64,000 bases of DNA. It comes from an uncultured Bdellovibrionales bacterium (GTDB taxonomy: Bacteria > Patescibacteriota > Minisyncoccia > Moranbacterales > UBA9337). The DNA lies in contig CAZSCV010000004.1 in assembly GCA_964605525.1 (NCBI GenBank), positions 38,667 to 102,666 on the forward strand, in the 5' to 3' direction. The notes below the pieces were generated by a model. That model saw only the letters and a program-made list of their open reading frames with translations, was not told the DNA's origin and made no database searches. Made by a program: the position numbers and the translations under genes. Below, in pieces: positions 331 to 52,330 of the stretch; positions within the stretch are counted from its first letter, which is position 1, and each line of letters starts with the position of its first letter.

Positions 331-633
331 GAAATTATCAGAAACAAAAATCCTCATTCAAACAATTCAAAAAATATCGAATTGCCAGAACGAGGATTCT
401 CGCGGTTCCATCTAGCTTTCCGCCTCATCGGCGGACACTTTGATTGATTTTATCGACTCCGAGGCTCCAACCCCTCATCACCGCCGATTTGAATTTTCCT
501 GTTTTTAGTATATAAAATTTAATCCTTCCGGTCAAATCGATTGACTTTCTTCTTTTCTCGTGCTAACATTTTTTGATATCATATTATTGATATCTCATAG
601 CTATTTTACAAACATAACCTCGGAGGAAATACA

Positions 634-1290: not shown

Positions 1291-1330
1291 TTTACTACAA
1301 AACATTCACGATCGCGAGATTTTGTAGCAC
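1291..1330. promoter_or_regulatory. 37-bp palindromic element (left copy), 25 bp past the stop of 1352..1942
   Basis: tactacaaaacattcacgatcgcgagattttgtag is self-palindromic (ctacaaaa/ttttgtag arms) and followed by a T-run on the minus strand, so it can act as a terminator hairpin. Inverted copy of the element at 1951-1990. Confidence 0.5.
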
Positions 1331-1351
1331 AACAAATATCACCACCTCCAA

Positions 1352-1942
1352 CTAATCCTTTATACTGTATATTTTTTCCACAAGCATATAATCAACATAA
1401 TTTCCGATTTTTCTCATTTTTATTTCTCTTATTAAATCCGAAGTTAAAGGATATTTACTCATAAAAACACTTTTTTGCAATTGCTTGTAGTTTAAAAGAT
1501 AAAGCTCGCCTCGAAGCCAATCCCGATCTTTTCTCATATCCTCAGGAATATCAAAGATTACCACTCGGTATTTCTTATCCCATTTTTTATCCAAAACTTT
1601 TTTTCTTTTCAAAACATAATCTAAAATATTACAACCTTTTTCAGTCAACAAAAAAGAACTCCCGTCTTTTTTCACAAAACCTTGTTTTTGCAATCTACGG
1701 ATACTTTGCCTTATTGTTTTTTCTGAAAACTTTTCGCTTTTCAGTTTTTCAAAATCAATTACGCCTCTCTTTCCGGATCCACTCAGTGGATCGCCATAAT
1801 AAGAAGGATTTAAAAATATTTCAATAGTTGCTTCACCAAAAAGAGCTAGATTTGAAAATATCCAAACTCCGGCACTTATTGAATTATCTAGAATTTTTTT
1901 AGCGAATCTTTTTTCTGCTATATTTTTATCATTTTTACTCAT
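1352..1942 (-). CDS. winged-helix DNA-binding domain fused to a Cas2-like (VapD/Cas2 fold) C-terminal domain
   Basis: N-terminal wHTH (TIRQSIRRLQKQGFVKKDG…LTEKG); C-terminal segment YRVVIFDIPEDMRKDRDWLRGELYLLNYKQLQKSVF matches the Cas2 pattern [VI]x[FY]D[IV]…R…L…Q.SVF. No other cas genes in the window. Confidence 0.5.
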   Translation of the reverse strand: MSKNDKNIAEKRFAKKILDNSISAGVWIFSNLALFGEATIEIFLNPSYYGDPLSGSGKRGVIDFEKLKSEKFSEKTIRQSIRRLQKQGFVKKDGSSFLLTEKGCNILDYVLKRKKVLDKKWDKKYRVVIFDIPEDMRKDRDWLRGELYLLNYKQLQKSVFMSKYPLTSDLIREIKMRKIGNYVDYMLVEKIYSIKD

Positions 1943-1950
1943 ACCGAAAT

Positions 1951-1990
1951 TATACTACAAAATCTCGCGATCGTGAACAAACTGTAGTAT
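1951..1990. promoter_or_regulatory. 37-bp palindromic element (right copy), 9 bp upstream of the start codon of 1352..1942
   Basis: tactacaaaatctcgcgatcgtgaacaaactgtagta; reverse complement matches 1305-1327 over 23 bp (ttcacgatcgcgagattttgtag). Candidate operator. Confidence 0.5.
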
Positions 1991-2019: not shown

Positions 2020-3291
2020 TTATTTTTTTATTTTCTTTCTAATTAAAGAAAATGGCTGGATGTCTTTTTTGTCAATTTGCAGGAAATAATTTTTTCCTTG
2101 TCCGCCGTGGGCGGAAAGGGCTTCTTGCATATCCTCATTGAAGATCTTTTTCAATTTTGCCAGATGATTTCCTTTTTGATCGACAATCTCAATTTCATCG
2201 CCAAGATAAATCGCATTATGCGGCTTGATTTCCACCATTCGCTTATTCGCATTATTCGTAGATTCGCATCGGTTTATGACTTCCCCGACGAACTCCCATT
2301 CTGATTCATTGTGCGAATTCTCAAAATTGTGATCCGGCTCATTGCCTAGCAAAAATCCTGCTGTGTACCCCCGATGAAAGAGCGAATTCAAATTTTCCAT
2401 TTCCTCCTTCAACACCTCTTCGTATTTTTTCTTCTCCTCCCCATTCTTAATTCTCAATTCATGCTTCATAATTCTCGAATAAGCCCGCACGACCACCGCC
2501 AAATAATACACACTTTTGTTGCGCCCTTCGATTTTGAAAGACTCTACTCCTGCATCTGCCAAGTCTTTCAAATGAGAAAGCAAATTCAAATCCTTGCTGT
2601 TAAAAAAATATGTCCCCTGCCCATCCTCCTCAACTTCCATCTCAAATTCTTTTTGATGGTCAACAACATTTATTTTCTTGTATTCCCATCGACAAGGCTG
2701 TACGCAATCTCCCAAATTGGCACTTCGCCCGCGCATCCATTTGGAAAGCATACACCGTCCGGAATAACTCATACACATCGCCCCATGCACAAAATATTCC
2801 AATTCAACATTTGGATTTTCTTTTTTGATTTCCCGAATTTCTTCAAGTGTCACTTCACGCGCCAAAACCACTCTTCTAATCCCCTGATCCGCCCAAAATT
2901 TTACCGCCCGCCAGTTGGTCGCGTTAGCCTGAGTGGAGAGATGGATTTCAATTTCCGGCAATTTTTCTTTTACCAACTCCAATATTCCCGGGTCGCTGAT
3001 TAAAACCGCATCCGCTCCGACTTTTTTCAACTCATCTAAATCTTTTTCCAATTTTTCCAAATGCGCGTTGTGCGCGTAGATATTCAGCGTGACATAAAAT
3101 TTCTTTTCCAATTTGTGCGCATATTCCACACCTTCTTTCAAGGAATTCCAATCAAAATCATTGATCCGTGCGCGCAGCGAAAAGTCCGGCACACCGGCAT
3201 ACACCGCGTCCGCCCCATAAGCAAAAGCATATTTCATTTTCTCCACGCTTCCCGCCGGCGCCAAAAGTTCCAGTTTTTTATTATCATTCAT
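2020..3291 (-). CDS. peptidase U32 family protein (collagenase-like YhbU/YegQ type)
   Basis: LELLAPAGS…AVYAG…, conserved Cys-rich segment GAMCMSYSGRCMLS, 423 aa. Confidence 0.85.
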   Translation of the reverse strand: MNDNKKLELLAPAGSVEKMKYAFAYGADAVYAGVPDFSLRARINDFDWNSLKEGVEYAHKLEKKFYVTLNIYAHNAHLEKLEKDLDELKKVGADAVLISDPGILELVKEKLPEIEIHLSTQANATNWRAVKFWADQGIRRVVLAREVTLEEIREIKKENPNVELEYFVHGAMCMSYSGRCMLSKWMRGRSANLGDCVQPCRWEYKKINVVDHQKEFEMEVEEDGQGTYFFNSKDLNLLSHLKDLADAGVESFKIEGRNKSVYYLAVVVRAYSRIMKHELRIKNGEEKKKYEEVLKEEMENLNSLFHRGYTAGFLLGNEPDHNFENSHNESEWEFVGEVINRCESTNNANKRMVEIKPHNAIYLGDEIEIVDQKGNHLAKLKKIFNEDMQEALSAHGGQGKNYFLQIDKKDIQPFSLIRKKIKK

Positions 3292-3336: not shown

Positions 3337-4440
3337 TTATCTTCTCGTGTTTGGCGGTTTTTCGATGCGAATTTTGAATATATCGCTGTTTTTTTCTCCG
3401 GGGGTTCCGAAATTTTCTTCCGGATTGTCCCAAAAATATCCACTGGCACAAATCTCTCTTTCGCAAGTATGCCAATTTTTTTCTTCCAATCCATTTCCAT
3501 ATTCATTATTTCTTTCCATTGATTTTTTATTATTTCCGTTTTCTCCAAAAAACCATTCGACGCCCATTACTTCATCCTCTATATTTTCTTTCTCATTTTT
3601 CAATACCAAATTTCCATTTCCGAAATTTGACAAAGAAATACTGGAATTAACTTCATCAACTTCAACCGCAAGCGCGGAATTCGCACTTTCATCGGAATAA
3701 TTAGAAATCAGAAAATACCCATTAGAATCAATACTCTTTCCGCCAGGAATTTTCAGACTATTCCCGCTTGACCTAGCGTTTTCAATTTCCCAACCGCCAA
3801 TATCGATTTTTTCATCGGACAAATTTCGCAGTTCAATCCATTCATCCGAAGAAGAAGCAGTCGAACCCATCCACATTACCTCATTGATAATCACTTTCTT
3901 TTTTGGTTCGTCTATAAAAACAACTTCATTTCCTGATATTTCCTCCGCATCATTCCATCCTTGTTTAAAAGAAAAATTTTTTTGCCACGCGTTGAAATAA
4001 ACATCGAATTTACATTTTTCTTCCCAATCTCCGTCTCCAACTTTTAATTCTAAATTCCAATTGATATTTTTTTTCGCTTTCAAATTATCCGAATATGAAA
4101 AATCTTCCAATTTTCCATCAAAAATTTCTTCACCTTCCGCTTTCGCCTTAATATTCAATTGTCCACACAAATCTCCTGATACGTTTTCAGTAAAAATTTT
4201 ATAATCAAAATCGATTGTTCCTTTATTTTTAAGATAAAATTCTTGAAAAAATTCATCACCTTCCACAACATTTCTTTGAACAAACGGATCAGCTCCGTCG
4301 ATTTTCATATCCAACATCCCCGCCTTAAACAAATTTTTTTTTGTTTTTTCGCTATCTTCAAAAAACGCCTGCGCATCCGAAGACAAAGCAAATAAAATAA
4401 ACAATACTACAACTGAAATTTTGCAAAAATCAACCTTCAT
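3337..4440 (-). CDS. secreted protein with a lamin-tail domain (LTD)
   Basis: Signal peptide MKVDFCKISVVVLFILFALSSDAQA; LTD motif VIINEVMW…DEWIELRNLSDEKIDIGGWEI. Start placed at the internal Met; the ORF as listed extends to 4461. Confidence 0.55.
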   Translation of the reverse strand: MKVDFCKISVVVLFILFALSSDAQAFFEDSEKTKKNLFKAGMLDMKIDGADPFVQRNVVEGDEFFQEFYLKNKGTIDFDYKIFTENVSGDLCGQLNIKAKAEGEEIFDGKLEDFSYSDNLKAKKNINWNLELKVGDGDWEEKCKFDVYFNAWQKNFSFKQGWNDAEEISGNEVVFIDEPKKKVIINEVMWMGSTASSSDEWIELRNLSDEKIDIGGWEIENARSSGNSLKIPGGKSIDSNGYFLISNYSDESANSALAVEVDEVNSSISLSNFGNGNLVLKNEKENIEDEVMGVEWFFGENGNNKKSMERNNEYGNGLEEKNWHTCEREICASGYFWDNPEENFGTPGEKNSDIFKIRIEKPPNTRR

Positions 4441-4969
4441 AAATCTTCTTTTTTGTGTCATTTTTCAACTTTTTCATCCTCACGATTTCACTTTTTATTT
4501 TTCCAAATTCATCAAAAATAATAATCAAAGCGGGAACGACTACCAATGTCGCGAATCCATATGGTTGTTTTGCAGTATGAATAACATATCCCAAATACGG
4601 AACCGTCAAAAAAACTTTCCCGATAATATTTTCCTGTGCAACTTCATTAAAATCACGTTCCGAATTAGCATCTCCTTTGGTTGCATATTTTTTTTCTCCA
4701 TCTTTTTCTTTTATTTCAATGATGCGATGAGTGATTGTTTTTTTTGGCGTTTTTGCGTCCGCAAAACTAACAATATCATTAGCATTATAATTTTCCGCCG
4801 ATTTAACGGCTACAATGCTTCCGGTTTTGACGGCGGGCTCCATCGATCCCGACTGTACCACCATCACTCGATAATATCCAAAAATCGGAAAAACAGACAT
4901 CGCCAAAAACAAAACCACTATTATAACGGCTCCGAAAAAAACATAAGAAATAAGTTCAAATATTTTCAT
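4430..4969 (-). CDS. signal peptidase I, SipW type (S26 family)
   Basis: N-terminal TM segment, catalytic segment VVQSGSMEP…, length and layout of archaeal/eukaryal-type SipW; lies next to TasA-like genes. Confidence 0.7.
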   Translation of the reverse strand: MKIFELISYVFFGAVIIVVLFLAMSVFPIFGYYRVMVVQSGSMEPAVKTGSIVAVKSAENYNANDIVSFADAKTPKKTITHRIIEIKEKDGEKKYATKGDANSERDFNEVAQENIIGKVFLTVPYLGYVIHTAKQPYGFATLVVVPALIIIFDEFGKIKSEIVRMKKLKNDTKKKIYEG

Positions 4970-5040
4970 ACTATATAAAACTTCATCCCCCGACCCGCAA
5001 AAGATCGGGAAGAAAGTTTCAAAAAAACTCAAAAACTTGT

Positions 5041-5772
5041 TTACGGAAATATTTTATCGGGATTATCTTCCGATTGAACCACTTGCATTGTTATTTTTCC
5101 CGAAACGGAATCACCTTGCAAAATATTTCCTTCATTTTCCGGCAGGCTCCATTTTATTCCCAAATAATATGTACTAGAAGCGACGATTTCTTCCGGCAAG
5201 ACAATCCAGCCTATATTATGAATATTACTAGCTGAAACGTCTTCCAATAACGCTCTTTCTGCGCCATCCATAATTTTATTTCCTTCGCCAGGATCGGACG
5301 CACACGCCGGCATGTTTGTCGAACATTGCCAACCGGAAATCTCCCCTTCGTCCATCCAAAAAGTAAAAAGGAGTTTTTCTCCAAACTCTCCTTCTTCCAT
5401 TCCCGGATCTCCACAGGTTGAGTCTTCTTTTTCTTCCGGTTCACCGCAAGAGTTTTCCCAATCATAAAGACTGGACAAACTTATTCGTCCCCAAGCATTG
5501 TCGCTATACACGTGCCAGCTAATGGCAGATGATCGGCTGTCGCCCGGTGTGACACTATATTCGGAAAAAAATGGACGGTTATCCACCAAATCGCGCTCGG
5601 AAAACGAGCAATCAACTCCGGAACATTGATAGTCCACTTTTAAATCGATTGCGCTTGCGCTGAAAGTATTGCCGACGCTTTTTTCGGTGTCGCCAAAAAA
5701 AGACATCGTACCGCCAACCAAAACGATACTTGCCACTCCGATTGTTCCTAGGCTAAACAGTATCTTTTTCAT
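5041..5772 (-). CDS. TasA/camelysin-like secreted protein with SipW-cognate signal peptide
   Basis: N-terminus MKKILFSLGTIGVASIVLVGGTMSFFGDTEKSVGNTFSASAIDL fits the SipW-cognate class (GG(G)T…F.D.E…N.F.AG.LDL). Confidence 0.6.
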   Translation of the reverse strand: MKKILFSLGTIGVASIVLVGGTMSFFGDTEKSVGNTFSASAIDLKVDYQCSGVDCSFSERDLVDNRPFFSEYSVTPGDSRSSAISWHVYSDNAWGRISLSSLYDWENSCGEPEEKEDSTCGDPGMEEGEFGEKLLFTFWMDEGEISGWQCSTNMPACASDPGEGNKIMDGAERALLEDVSASNIHNIGWIVLPEEIVASSTYYLGIKWSLPENEGNILQGDSVSGKITMQVVQSEDNPDKIFP

Positions 5773-5828
5773 AATAATTTTCTATTCTCAGATAACTACT
5801 TTCCTTGAAAACTGAGAGTATATAGAAA

Positions 5829-6422
5829 TTAATCTTCTATTTCACCTATCGGAGCGCAAGCTCCTGTCTTTTGAGTAGCTGTAATCAACAAATCTCCCTT
5901 AAATGAATCAGTTTGAACACTGTTATCAGTTCCTTCCGGAAGCTCCCATTTGATCACATAAGTCCCCGCTCCCAATTCTCCCAAGGAATATTCTCCATCC
6001 TCGGTAAATTGACCGCTTGCAAGTTCAGTTGTTCCATTCGCAGCATAAATTCCAAAAACCATTTCATCGTTCAATTCTCCCTCACCATCTGGCGTACAAC
6101 CAGTTTCATCACTTTGTTCCGGCTCAGTACAGGTATTATCTTTATCATCACGAAGATCAACACTTGCCACTCCGCACGCCGCCACACCAGTGGAGCTTAT
6201 TGCAAATGTTTTTTCTCCATGCGACCCCGGAACCAAATTTGATTCATTAAAAATAGGCGAAGTCATTTCATCGCCATCAACATTGACAATCAAATCCAAA
6301 CTGCCGGCTGTAAATGTGTTTCCATTGCTTTCTTCCTTATCGGAAAAGAGAGCTCCGGTGGAACCGACTACAACCGCAACCGCCGCAAAAATAATTGCTG
6401 TACTTAAAAATATTTTTTTCAT
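5829..6422 (-). CDS. TasA/camelysin-like secreted protein with SipW-cognate signal peptide (paralog)
   Basis: MKKIFLSTAIIFAAVAVVVGSTGALFSDKEESNGNTFTAGSLDL. Confidence 0.6.
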   Translation of the reverse strand: MKKIFLSTAIIFAAVAVVVGSTGALFSDKEESNGNTFTAGSLDLIVNVDGDEMTSPIFNESNLVPGSHGEKTFAISSTGVAACGVASVDLRDDKDNTCTEPEQSDETGCTPDGEGELNDEMVFGIYAANGTTELASGQFTEDGEYSLGELGAGTYVIKWELPEGTDNSVQTDSFKGDLLITATQKTGACAPIGEIED

Positions 6423-6595
6423 AATTTTTTTGTTATTATTTTTTAAATTATTTTCAATACTTATTTTATAAAAATAAGTATTTTTGAAACTTTGGAAGTT
6501 TCCACCTCGACCTTTAAATATTTAAACAACCGTTTAAATAATAAATAAATTTATAAATACTTACTGTTAAAAAACAAAAAACCGAGTTTCATTAA

Positions 6596-6622
6596 TATGC
6601 AAAAAAATATTTTTGCATATTA
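6596..6622. promoter_or_regulatory. perfect 11-bp-arm palindrome atatgcaaaaa-aat-atttttgcatat, ~175 bp upstream of the TasA-like gene
   Basis: Seen directly in the sequence; candidate operator. Confidence 0.3.
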
Positions 6623-6753
6623 AATTAGATCGGTTTTGCCATTTGACTCCCCGCGCAATAATGGGCAACCATTTTTAGCTTTCTGCGCGGATCATAGCCT
6701 TCTAATTTTCTTTTTTATTTTGTACTCTCATTATCTCAACTGAGATTTTATAG

Positions 6754-7026
6754 TCAAGCAAACTTATCCACAGTAAAATTCCAAGTATTCGCCACTGCTT
6801 GGGCGATGCGGCGGGTAGTGAAATTTTCCGGCATATCCGAAGCAACTTCCAATTTCATATCTTCTGAATTTATTTTGTTTTTAGCAAGCATTTCATCGAT
6901 TTTTGAAAGCAAATCCCGGCTCAAACTGCTTCCATCTTTCCATTTGAGATTATCCAAAACCTCTCCGCCTTTTTTCAAGACAAGAAAAATATTATTATCT
7001 TTAATTTTGATTTCTAAAATATACAT
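6754..7026 (-). CDS. short TsaB(YeaZ)-like N-terminal fragment (90 aa), possibly a truncated remnant
   Basis: MYILEIKIKDNNIFLVLKKGGEVL…SRDLLSKIDEMLAKNKINSEDMK parallels the first domain of TsaB (MLILALDTS…GEVL…S(E)RLLP.ID.LL..AG..L.DL); lacks the rest of the protein. Confidence 0.3.
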   Translation of the reverse strand: MYILEIKIKDNNIFLVLKKGGEVLDNLKWKDGSSLSRDLLSKIDEMLAKNKINSEDMKLEVASDMPENFTTRRIAQAVANTWNFTVDKFA

Positions 7027-7028
7027 CC

Positions 7029-7829
7029 TTATTTTTCAATTTTATTCCAATCAAAATTCCACGGGTCATCTTTTCTTCCCGGAGAAATTTGATTGTGTCC
7101 CAAGACATATTTTATCTCATACTCTCCTTTTAAATAATCAAGGAGTCCACTCAGCGCGACGTATTGCTCCGCGGTATACTTCTCTTTTTTTGTGTTCATC
7201 AGTTCAATCCCCAAAGAAAAATCATTCACTCCTGTCCGACCGTCAGGAACTTGCGACTGCCCGGCATGGTACGCAATATTTTTATCCTCAACCAAACGGT
7301 AAACACTTCCCTCGCGATCAATCAAATAATGCGGGGCTACTCCGTATTGCTTGTACTCATCAATCAACCCGCGCACATTATATGGCTCGCTCCCCAGCGC
7401 GTCATAAGAAGAATGAATGATTATGGTATCAATATTCCGGCTGGATTTTTTGGCATATCCCCAAGAAACCAAATTCTGAAAAATTTTCAAATCGCTATCT
7501 TTCACTTCCTCTTTTTTGATTTCCGCATCCGCTCCATTTTCCGCACTTTTGTTCTCGCTGGTAACAGGAGCATCCTCCTCTTTGATTTTCCCGCCGGCAA
7601 CTTCAACAGCGCCAGAGGTTGCATCACCGACATCCGCATTTTTAATCCCGCCTACCTTCATCACTTCTTTTGTTTGGATATTCGCATTGAAACTTTCAGC
7701 CTCACTTAAATTCTCAATCACAAGCTCTCCCTTTTCCCTGCCGGAGAAAAAAAACCAAAAACTCACCGCCAAAATGACGATGAGAATTGCAAACAAAATG
7801 TAGATATATTTTGTGTTTTTGATTGTCAT
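7029..7829 (-). CDS. N-acetylmuramoyl-L-alanine amidase (Amidase_2/PGRP family), membrane-anchored
   Basis: N-terminal TM; IIIHSS…AYHAG…NDFSLGIEL motif. Confidence 0.8.
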   Translation of the reverse strand: MTIKNTKYIYILFAILIVILAVSFWFFFSGREKGELVIENLSEAESFNANIQTKEVMKVGGIKNADVGDATSGAVEVAGGKIKEEDAPVTSENKSAENGADAEIKKEEVKDSDLKIFQNLVSWGYAKKSSRNIDTIIIHSSYDALGSEPYNVRGLIDEYKQYGVAPHYLIDREGSVYRLVEDKNIAYHAGQSQVPDGRTGVNDFSLGIELMNTKKEKYTAEQYVALSGLLDYLKGEYEIKYVLGHNQISPGRKDDPWNFDWNKIEK

Positions 7830-43505: not shown

Positions 43506-43522
43506 AATGAAAAACGCAATAA

Positions 43523-43548
43523 AAGCAGGCTTTGGCCTGCTTTTATTG
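43523..43548. terminator. rho-independent terminator
   Basis: agcaggc-tttg-gcctgct followed by tttattgc. Confidence 0.55.
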
Positions 43549-43596
43549 CTATAAATATATTTGCAAGAAACGTCTTTTTCTGCTTATTTGAAAATT

Positions 43597-52155: not shown

Positions 52156-52243
52156 CTCCTTTCATTTTTAGTTTTTATATTCAACTCTAGTAATTTTACA
52201 ACTTTTCCCTAAAATAAAGCAAATTCAGTTATCCACAACGTAA

Positions 52244-52330
52244 AATCCAACGCAACGTCGGATCACGTTGCACAGCACCCTAGAATCCAACGCAACGTCG
52301 GATCACGTTGCACAGCACCCTAGAATCCAT
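52244..52330. repeat. 2.2 tandem copies of a 40-bp unit, each containing a 7-bp-stem hairpin (gcaacgt-cggatc-acgttgc)
   Basis: aatccaacgcaacgtcggatcacgttgcacagcaccctag repeated exactly; GC-enriched; between the rny 3' end and the hup 5' end. Confidence 0.6.

Follow-up and report, generated by a model that had tools for sequence, protein, structure and literature searches.

A short PaaX-like protein with a Cas2-like domain, encoded between two copies of a palindromic element across Patescibacteria, as a candidate autorepressor

Why should the gene for a small DNA-binding protein be both preceded and followed by the same palindrome? This question is raised by a 64,000-nucleotide stretch of DNA (at its full length referred to as the window) from an uncultured bacterium of the patescibacterial lineage Moranbacterales, in which the gene for a 196-aa protein lies between two copies of a 33-nt dyad element. 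Patescibacteria, for which the name candidate phyla radiation is likewise in use, have tiny genomes with few recognisable regulators, and to our knowledge almost no regulator of this group has a known binding site. An earlier interpretation made from the letters of the window (the sequence-only reading) had described a winged helix-turn-helix (wHTH) protein with a Cas2 signature and had proposed either an autoregulated cassette or a small mobile unit. The explanation that we favour, with a probability of roughly 0.6, is that the gene encodes a short PaaX-like wHTH autorepressor, dimerised through its Cas2-like fold, with a tripartite palindromic operator that lies in its own promoter and is repeated directly 3′ of the gene. 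The gene and the two elements are located as follows.

1352–1942, minus strand: gene for the 196-aa short PaaX-like protein, an open reading frame (ORF) that encodes N-terminal helices, a winged helix, a linker helix and a Cas2-like domain.
1955–1987, no strand assigned: upstream copy of the dyad element, probable operator; the gene strand reads CTACAGTTTGTTCACGATCGCGAGATTTTGTAG.
1295–1327, no strand assigned: downstream copy of the dyad element, predicted second operator; the plus strand reads CTACAAAACATTCACGATCGCGAGATTTTGTAG, inverted relative to the upstream copy.

The two copies share an exact 23-nt core, TTCACGATCGCGAGATTTTGTAG, at 1305–1327 (plus strand) and 1955–1977 (minus strand), as the sequence-only reading had already noticed. 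Even with up to three mismatches allowed, the core matched at just these two places in 64 kb, while no match was obtained in 100 shuffles, which rules out a chance repeat. The inverted repeat extends to 40 nt with 83% complementarity (1293–1332/1950–1989). Each core had been placed within a self-palindrome of 37 bp. The elements are indeed palindromic, but they are better described as a 33-nt near-palindrome, CTACA-N23-TGTAG with the centre CGATCG, and only the downstream copy possesses outer arms of 8 nt (CTACAAAA/TTTTGTAG), the upstream copy being a weaker self-palindrome with arms of 5 nt. Likewise, the bracketing of the gene was confirmed, but the spacings of 9 bp before the start and 25 bp past the stop had to be revised: 12 nt lie between the end of the upstream element and the ATG (7 nt for its extended arm), and 24 nt separate the stop codon from the beginning of the downstream element. 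A looser site pattern retrieved these two real copies only and no third, so that a search for other copies of the palindrome added nothing within the 64-kb window, while relatives carry pairs of their own. Comparison with a related contig (L001), in which the gene region is about 81% identical to that of the window, revealed that 32 of 33 nt of the upstream site and 30 of 33 nt of the downstream site were kept, versus 16 of 24 nt in the stretch between the stop codon and the downstream site. Between these two genomes, the sites are better conserved than the adjacent non-coding DNA.

A genome scan returned 218 relatives; the 80 loci that we kept belong to Patescibacteria by title or by an obvious automatic label. 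Nearly all of 27 full-length homolog loci exhibited a dyad element of 32–46 nt upstream of the gene and again just downstream of it. The outer arms differed between relatives (TTATACAC/GTGTATAA, CTACA/TGTAG, GTGACA/TGTCAC and others), and the centres were GC-rich and palindromic (CGATCG, CGGCCG, CGGTCG, GCGATCGC). Distant relatives from many patescibacterial lineages displayed the same two-sided dyad elements. For a uniform bracket test, we scored ungapped elements common to the 5′ and 3′ flanks of a gene and required a score of at least 17. Family genes were positive in 56 of 75 cases (75%), whereas among control genes from these loci the count was 7 of 309 (about 2%); four of these seven controls were neighbours bearing the same site and one was a run of N. 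Several of the 19 bracket-negative loci nonetheless showed both sites in the palindrome scan. The two-site bracket is a hallmark of the family and the main result of this analysis.

The sequence of the site varies among genomes, and both copies of one locus match each other. A metagenome-assembled genome with three paralogs (L019, L021 and L022) even contains a separate pair of sites for each of them. Variants of the recognition helix pair with variants of the arms (SARTILWRL with TGTTAT, TIRQSIRRLQKQG with TGTA), a correspondence that is confounded by phylogeny. The layout of one gene plus two sites is conserved across Patescibacteria, and the site co-varies with the protein. The sequence-only reading had overlooked this conserved bracket as well as the nature of the protein as a short homolog of the PaaX family, and had presented the inverted orientation of the copies as a defining feature. 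Orientation was mixed, however, with 13 direct and 9 inverted pairs among the loci of one set that had an oriented downstream copy. The near-palindromic nature of the site, with its CGRYCG centre, explains why direct and inverted pairs are about equally common, and flips of this centre are transitions among the four CGRYCG states. We thus discarded orientation as a meaningful feature; the inverted arrangement is peculiar to the window genome. A separate observation concerns locus L029, where tandem arrays at 3570–3740 and 4620–4710 hold sites 49–97 nt apart, three upstream and two downstream of the family gene.

The protein itself combines two domains, both encoded on the minus strand.

1592–1753, minus strand: wHTH plus linker helix, aa 64–117; Pfam HTH_45 and HTH_12 over aa 67–114, AlphaFold2 (AF2) model and hhalign alignment.
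1376–1588, minus strand: Cas2-like ferredoxin-fold domain, aa 119–189; motifs WDKKYR, VVIFDIPE, R140/R144 and LQKSVF.

Pfam matches, AF2, Foldseek and profile comparisons all agreed with the proposal of a 196-aa protein in which a wHTH is joined to a segment with the Cas2 signature (VVIFDIP…LQKSVF). The C-terminal domain (aa 119–189) matched PF20803, PaaX_M, the “PaaX central Cas2-like domain”, with 56.4 bits (cutoff 24; E = 3.2e-15). The model of the N-terminal PaaX wHTH (PF07848) remained below its gathering score (15.3 bits versus a cutoff of 24.8), PaaX_C gave no Pfam match, and the protein stops at aa 196. A match to PaaX_C had been named beforehand as an outcome that would speak against a Cas2 fold; since the domain matched is PaaX_M, Pfam’s Cas2-like middle domain, this objection does not arise. 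In the AF2 model (predicted local distance difference test score, pLDDT, 84), the N-terminal part consists of helices at 64–68 and 74–87, strands at 90–93 and 96–99, and a helix at 101–117. Foldseek returned PaaX of E. coli W (8a39) as the top match, with the PaaX-like structures 3kfw and 3l09 also within the top four, and many Cas2 structures matched the C-terminal domain with probabilities of 0.98–0.99. In both PaaX and Cas2, the Cas2-like domain serves as a dimerisation module. Alignment to PaaX of E. coli K-12 by hhalign (aa 65–182 to PaaX 51–171; probability 94%, E = 1.4e-7) extended over both the wHTH and the middle domain and included a common WDGKW motif. At the aligned positions, D131 is replaced by E and R140 by L in E. 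coli PaaX, S158 is aligned to a Ser, and the E. coli protein continues for 145 residues beyond the aligned part (171 of 316), a region that the 196-aa protein does not have.

When a profile of the C-terminal domain was compared with the PDB, the best sequence matches were Cas2 (6jhz and 8ia4, E about 0.01) and VapD, the two families with which the sequence-only reading had proposed to compare it; the same domain as a single sequence gave no match. In the profile alignment, VVIFDIPE corresponds to Cas2 IVFFDLPV, LQKSVF to QQKSVY, and D131 falls onto the Cas2 Asp. Only four residues were invariant in 57 diverse relatives (24–48% identity), namely G103, D131, R140 and S158. The catalytic constellation proposed for Cas2/VapD includes an Asp at the end of β1 and a Ser in the β2–β3 turn (PMC10491678). 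These comparisons place the protein in the PaaX superfamily, as a short representative with two domains and with retained Asp/Arg/Ser residues of the Cas2 type. A canonical PaaX was ruled out by the missing PaaX_C, by the lack of paa genes in the annotated neighbourhood and by the score for the NCBIfam PaaX equivalog TIGR02277, which at 27.9 bits is far under the cutoff of 264.55. A true Cas2 or CRISPR locus was dismissed as well: the NCBIfam Cas2 model TIGR01573 scored 18.8 bits (cutoff 24.5), no CRISPR-like repeat array was found anywhere in the 64-kb window, and no Cas domain was detected among the seven nearest genes, in line with the earlier statement that cas neighbours are lacking. Searches for a defence-system or phage protein yielded only weak sub-threshold matches (PADLOC, PHROG).

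More than 160 close homologs of about 190–200 aa were found, which are called “PaaX family”, “Cas2” or hypothetical in their sources. An exhaustive profile search (E ≤ 1e-10) collected 3374 clusters at 50% identity; the best 150 of these clusters all contained proteins of roughly 80–250 aa, mostly 170–250 aa. These searches show the wHTH–Cas2-like family as a stand-alone gene with a wide distribution in Patescibacteria. Its inheritance looks vertical and appears to track taxonomy across the phylum.

To place the elements relative to transcription, two further features are needed.

1949–1977, minus strand: sigma-70-type promoter with the −35 box TTCACG (1972–1977), a spacer of 17 nt and the −10 box TATAAT (1949–1954).
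1206–1261, no strand assigned: long GC-rich hairpin with flanking A- and U-runs, seen in the RNA fold of the minus strand of 1205–1350 and by reading the sequence.

The promoter called by a scan, TTCACG-17-TATAAT, matched the consensus at 10 of 12 positions. On the gene strand, the upstream element CTACAGTTTGTTCACGATCGCGAGATTTTGTAG is directly followed by TATAATTTCGGTATG; the element contains the −35 box and the entire spacer, and the −10 box adjoins it. The overlap of the upstream copy with the promoter had thus been recognised correctly. The ATG at 1942 is located 6 nt past the −10 box, so that the mRNA is probably leaderless. A protein bound to the upstream copy would occupy the classic position of a repressor that occludes RNA polymerase, which fits an autorepressor and is consistent with the autoregulated cassette of the sequence-only reading. 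PaaX binds TGATTC-N27-GAATCA, an inverted repeat, and uses steric hindrance to repress Px, its own promoter (PMC9493321). An autorepressor is supported because PaaX, a homolog, acts through such a long-spaced inverted repeat, to which the geometry of CTACA-N23-TGTAG is analogous.

The downstream copy in the window, by comparison, has no usable −10 box on either strand. It had been interpreted as a terminator in combination with a T-run. This role is doubtful: the T-run begins 10 nt past the stem, and no terminator was called by the scan. The hairpin at 1206–1261, which the simple terminator scan missed, is the likelier terminator, probably bidirectional and shared with the convergent ORFs at 634–1183. 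Relatives confirmed the difference between the two positions. A strong, oriented −10 box was found 9–27 nt 3′ of the dyad (mode 13–16) in 22 of 36 upstream sites, versus 9% of random positions, and in 7 of 33 downstream sites. The downstream site begins a median of 18.5 nt past the stop codon (interquartile range 6–35) and occurs with a co-directional next gene (33 loci) as well as with a convergent one (20 loci). Taken together, these data indicate that the downstream site is part of the gene unit and not generally the promoter of a neighbour; a general role as next-gene promoter was ruled out by the frequency of −10 boxes and by a convergent next gene in 20 of 53 loci.

Sequence anatomy, fold, PaaX/Cas2 homology and conserved architecture, as described above, are results of the analysis. 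For DNA binding, repression and the role of the downstream copy, we infer the following scheme. A homodimer would bind the 33-nt tripartite dyad site (T)ACA-N8/9-CGRYCG-N8-TGT(A), whose outer arms, about 26 bp apart, would be contacted by the two wHTH domains, while the Cas2-like dimer, or the wings, would cover the invariant centre, CGRYCG, at the axis of the dyad. With spacer and −35 box covered, the bound upstream site would occlude RNA polymerase and mediate negative autoregulation, as does PaaX at Px. Directly 3′ of the stop codon, the second site would represent a promoter-less auxiliary operator. Our first preference for its function is cooperation with the upstream site via a DNA loop of ~660 bp that would enclose the whole gene. 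The second is a roadblock or insulator formed by the protein, which would limit read-through in either direction, from the gene or into it, and the third an operator of the next gene in the minority of genomes with a −10 box at this site.

How far such control might reach can be estimated from additional copies of the site. A metagenome scan with a strict site pattern yielded three contigs, corresponding to two gene-flanking pairs and one orphan; one of the pairs lies on a related contig of 128 kb, where the strict pattern revealed no other copy. The orphan site (379–411 of L081, a metagenome contig of 1.1 kb) agrees with the downstream copy of the window at 32 of 33 nt; the adjoining 380 nt on one side and 690 nt on the opposite side are free of family genes, and a short hairpin terminator follows ~35 nt past the site. 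In some relatives (L014, L015 and L017), extra copies precede adjacent genes, which encode a CDPS-SBP fusion, a Mur ligase, a glutamate racemase and an MFS transporter. Based on these site positions, the protein probably controls a few neighbours in some lineages, and in the window genome it may control only itself.

Several observations weigh against an autorepressor. D131, R140 and S158 are the most conserved positions of the family, a pattern that a pure dimerisation module would not need, and E. coli PaaX has lost the first two of these Cas2-type residues. A symmetric dimer would not demand the degree of similarity that is often seen between the two copies of a locus and that extends even to asymmetric positions of the spacer. 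Indels between close relatives are bounded by copies of the site, for which the operator model needs recombination between operators. The sole detectable sites in 64 kb adjoin the gene itself, so that there is no obvious regulon. Finally, we found no paper that joins PaaX with Cas2 or with Patescibacteria and none on the family; its phylum-wide self-bracketing and its retained Cas2 residues appear to be undescribed, while the family is known at the domain level.

Some of these observations would be accommodated if the palindromes, which have about the size of lox/FRT or REP sites, were recombination, attachment or cleavage sites at which the wHTH–Cas2-like protein nicks, cuts or directs recombination. 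We consider this unlikely, even though the gene lies between two cognate palindromes, of which the downstream one abuts the stop codon and which co-diverge with the protein, as in RAYT/REP systems (PMC2817692), and even though the catalytic-type residues of Cas2 are invariant and the two copies of a locus are nearly identical, asymmetric positions included. Further arguments for such an activity come from breaks in homology. Homology between the window and L001 stops at position 1293, the exact outer edge of the downstream site. L014 contains the CDPS gene plus an extra site (4618–7126) where L017 (4621–5598) has one site, and L015 (4600–7314) carries the Mur-ligase gene in the slot that holds the CDPS gene in L014; the slots, which hold different genes in the three related genomes (a CDPS-SBP fusion, a Mur ligase and a glutamate racemase), are delimited by copies of one 46-nt palindrome, and the homology blocks break inside the copies. 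Similarly, L009 (1066–3905) carries a 2.8-kb diversity-generating retroelement (DGR) cassette, with a target gene of 188 aa, bAvd (PF22296) and a reverse transcriptase (PF00078), that is framed by an additional copy of the site and the normal upstream one; in the close relative L006, one site is present and a DGR is absent. Such breaks fit sites that act as recombination or insertion boundaries. They can, however, also reflect RecA-type deletion between repeated operators, or the site as the last conserved element of a fast-evolving spacer, and the slot genes of L014, L015 and L017 are functionally related, as those of a regulon would be. Moreover, two copies in 64 kb and a flanking pair only on the 128-kb contig do not resemble the dispersal of REPs; no HUH/Tyr, DDE, tyrosine- or serine-recombinase domain was detected in the protein or its conserved neighbours; and the upstream copy is built into the promoter. 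The small mobile unit of the sequence-only reading is not supported, partly on the same evidence, as the gene is single-copy in the window, without a transposase or target-site duplication, next to an upstream U32-peptidase neighbour that is conserved in relatives, and belongs to a family that tracks taxonomy. In a more far-reaching version, which strikes us as rather unlikely, the locus would be a self-bracketed module in which a Cas2 relative with intact Asp/Arg/Ser nicks, cuts or synapses DNA on the dyad, and the sites would be recombination or insertion boundaries for accessory genes (DGR, CDPS) and not only operators. If true, a Cas2 outside CRISPR would handle DNA in a sequence-specific manner and might link Cas2 and PaaX in evolution, with a palindrome of about the size of a CRISPR repeat or lox site and thousands of patescibacterial wHTH–Cas2-like genes covered by the module.

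Whether the site works as DNA or as RNA is reflected in its pattern of symmetry. If the palindromes were hairpins of the transcript, i.e., a stabiliser or processing site in the 3′ untranslated region (3′ UTR) or between cistrons, the Cas2/VapD-like domain could be an RNase or RNA binder and autoregulation post-transcriptional. Endoribonucleases do occur among Cas2 and VapD proteins (PMC10491678), VapD was among the profile matches of the C-terminal domain, the downstream copy falls in the 3′ UTR ahead of the likely terminator and folds as RNA with −14.1 kcal/mol (z = −4.2), and many downstream sites are intercistronic, 20–56 nt ahead of the next co-directional ORF. Yet we regard this explanation as quite improbable. 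Symmetry peaks at the very centre of the site and in its outer arms, and mismatches gather 4–11 nt from the centre; self-complementarity runs through the CGRYCG centre, where a hairpin would have an unpaired loop, and centre and outer arms are conserved as sequence, beyond mere pairing. G·U-compatible mismatches were not favoured over A–C mismatches (21 versus 23 upstream, 24 versus 16 downstream). Because symmetry runs through the centre and a G·U bias is lacking, a double-stranded DNA site bound by a symmetric dimer is favoured over an RNA hairpin. The upstream copy, furthermore, overlaps the −35/−10 region and is mostly outside the mRNA in the window and in 22 of 36 relatives, where the oriented −10 box lies 3′ of the dyad; it folds weakly as RNA (z = −1.7), and the palindromes matched no Rfam family. 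Accordant with these sequence features, we favour a double-stranded DNA operator, while the transcribed downstream copy will fold and may bring side effects at the RNA level. It is also conceivable that the palindromes are bound by another factor or constitute generic promoter or terminator punctuation, with an indirect link to the gene. The extra copies before unrelated neighbouring genes in some relatives and the orphan site on L081 would agree with this idea, which we nevertheless judge very improbable in view of the family-specific enrichment of the bracket, the paralog-specific site pairs inside one genome and the confinement of both copies in 64 kb to this one gene. Furthermore, the protein contains a domain for DNA binding, and its homologs include a repressor of long-spaced inverted repeats.

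In homolog loci, the gene has housekeeping neighbours of varied kinds. Its neighbours in the window comprise a U32 peptidase, camelysin-like proteins, a signal peptidase and small ORFs; a further family member was not found in the window. The U32-peptidase gene (2020–3291) is 77 nt away on the 5′ side of the gene (gene strand). Two small plus-strand ORFs of no assigned family (634–903 and 923–1183; 89 and 86 aa) are convergent with the gene; both begin with MKVI and neither has a Pfam match. The slot of these two ORFs, located between the downstream site and a T-box-like element, holds a different ORF of 188 aa in L001, likewise without a Pfam match. As far as this comparison goes, the slot beside the downstream site (634–1183 in the window) is variable. 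The T-box-like element (383–490, minus strand) is a weak match to a T-box leader (37 bits versus a gathering score of 93; E = 6e-6) and the sole Rfam match near the palindromes, to which it is unrelated. The window is ~95% identical over 5.5 kb to contig L002 (Candidatus Moranbacteria bacterium GW2011_GWE2_35_2-). Homology of L002, L082 and L083 to the window ends at position 436, inside the T-box-like element, so that the window is rearranged or mis-joined there; in L002, a GlyRS gene is located ~660 nt past the corresponding breakpoint. Further upstream of the family gene, the minus strand of 3337–6422 encodes a cluster of camelysin/TasA-like proteins (Peptidase_M73), of which one carries a lamin-tail domain, together with an S26/S24 signal-peptidase-like gene. 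The cluster resembles a secreted-fibre operon of the TasA–SipW type.

Other repeats and palindromes of the window are recorded here for completeness. A tandem repeat at 63412–63525 consists of 3.4 copies of a 34-nt unit with 90% identity that contains CCCCGCGATCGCAAAGCGG. It is situated in a divergent intergenic region, between the start of a minus-strand gene at ~63302 and a plus-strand ORF at ~63690, and it has a GCGATCGC-type core as found in the palindromes of relatives, yet without dyad symmetry. At 52236–52329, a 40-nt unit, AATCCAACGCAACGTCGGATCACGTTGCACAGCACCCTAG, is repeated 2.2 times with 93–100% identity. Two further strong palindromes of 34 nt are present: ATTAATATGCAAAAAAATATTTTTGCATATTAAA at 6591–6624 may be another operator, and GCAATAAAAGCAGGCTTTGGCCTGCTTTTATTGC at 43516–43549 is terminator-like.

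The pairing of a very large family (3374 clusters) with a predicted cognate site in dozens of genomes offers a testable protein–operator pair. A layout in which a gene is kept between two sites over phylum-level divergence calls for an explanation, be it looping, a roadblock or recombination. The combination of Cas2/VapD-site residues with PaaX homology bears on the kinship of a CRISPR adaptation subunit, a toxin nuclease and a transcription factor. There is also a practical side: many database entries label members of the family “CRISPR-associated endonuclease Cas2”, which misleads CRISPR surveys of a phylum with little sign of CRISPR.

Several known systems share individual traits with the locus. 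Repressor genes with looping operator pairs are exemplified by lambda cI, which is situated between OL and OR, and by lac and gal with their auxiliary operators. By analogy with these, an operator at the promoter would be combined with a distant auxiliary operator beyond or inside the transcription unit; the putative auxiliary site described here differs in that it lies directly at the stop codon and is conserved throughout a phylum, and looping would be transferred to it by analogy only. The likeness to REP-associated tyrosine transposases (RAYTs) and their repetitive extragenic palindromes (REPs) is one of architecture only. Common to both are a single-copy gene with two cognate palindromes of ~30–40 nt, the downstream one at or near the stop codon (PMC2817692), the co-divergence of palindrome and protein, and the possession of own palindromes by paralogs. 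The family, however, shows no HUH/Tyr fold or motif (Pfam, PADLOC, PHROG, conserved columns), its palindromes are undispersed, with two copies in 64–128 kb, and the relative orientation of the copies is not fixed, with the upstream one embedded in a promoter. REPs, moreover, have a non-complementary middle and a GTAG head, whereas the sites of the family are symmetric through the centre. With Cas2 and VapD, the C-terminal domain shares the motif hhhFD(I/L)P...R..LR...LQ(K)SV(F/Y) and an end-to-end alignment with Cas2 6jhz and 8ia4, but unlike Cas2 it is fused to a wHTH, scores below the Cas2 cutoff and is not accompanied by cas1, an array or any other cas gene. PaaX of E. coli and Pseudomonas (PDB 8a39, 3l09, 3kfw), the phenylacetyl-CoA-responsive repressor of paa genes, has a similar arrangement of N-terminal wHTH and central Cas2-like domain, and its operator, a long-spaced inverted repeat at its own promoter, is similar in length and position to the one predicted here. 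Its C-terminal, PA-CoA-binding effector domain of five helices (PaaX_C) is absent from the short protein, which comprises 196 aa as compared to 316 aa, while D131 and R140 of the Cas2 type are kept in the family and replaced by E and L in PaaX. Compared with the PaaX operator, the predicted operator of the family adds a conserved GC-rich centre and a second copy 3′ of the gene.

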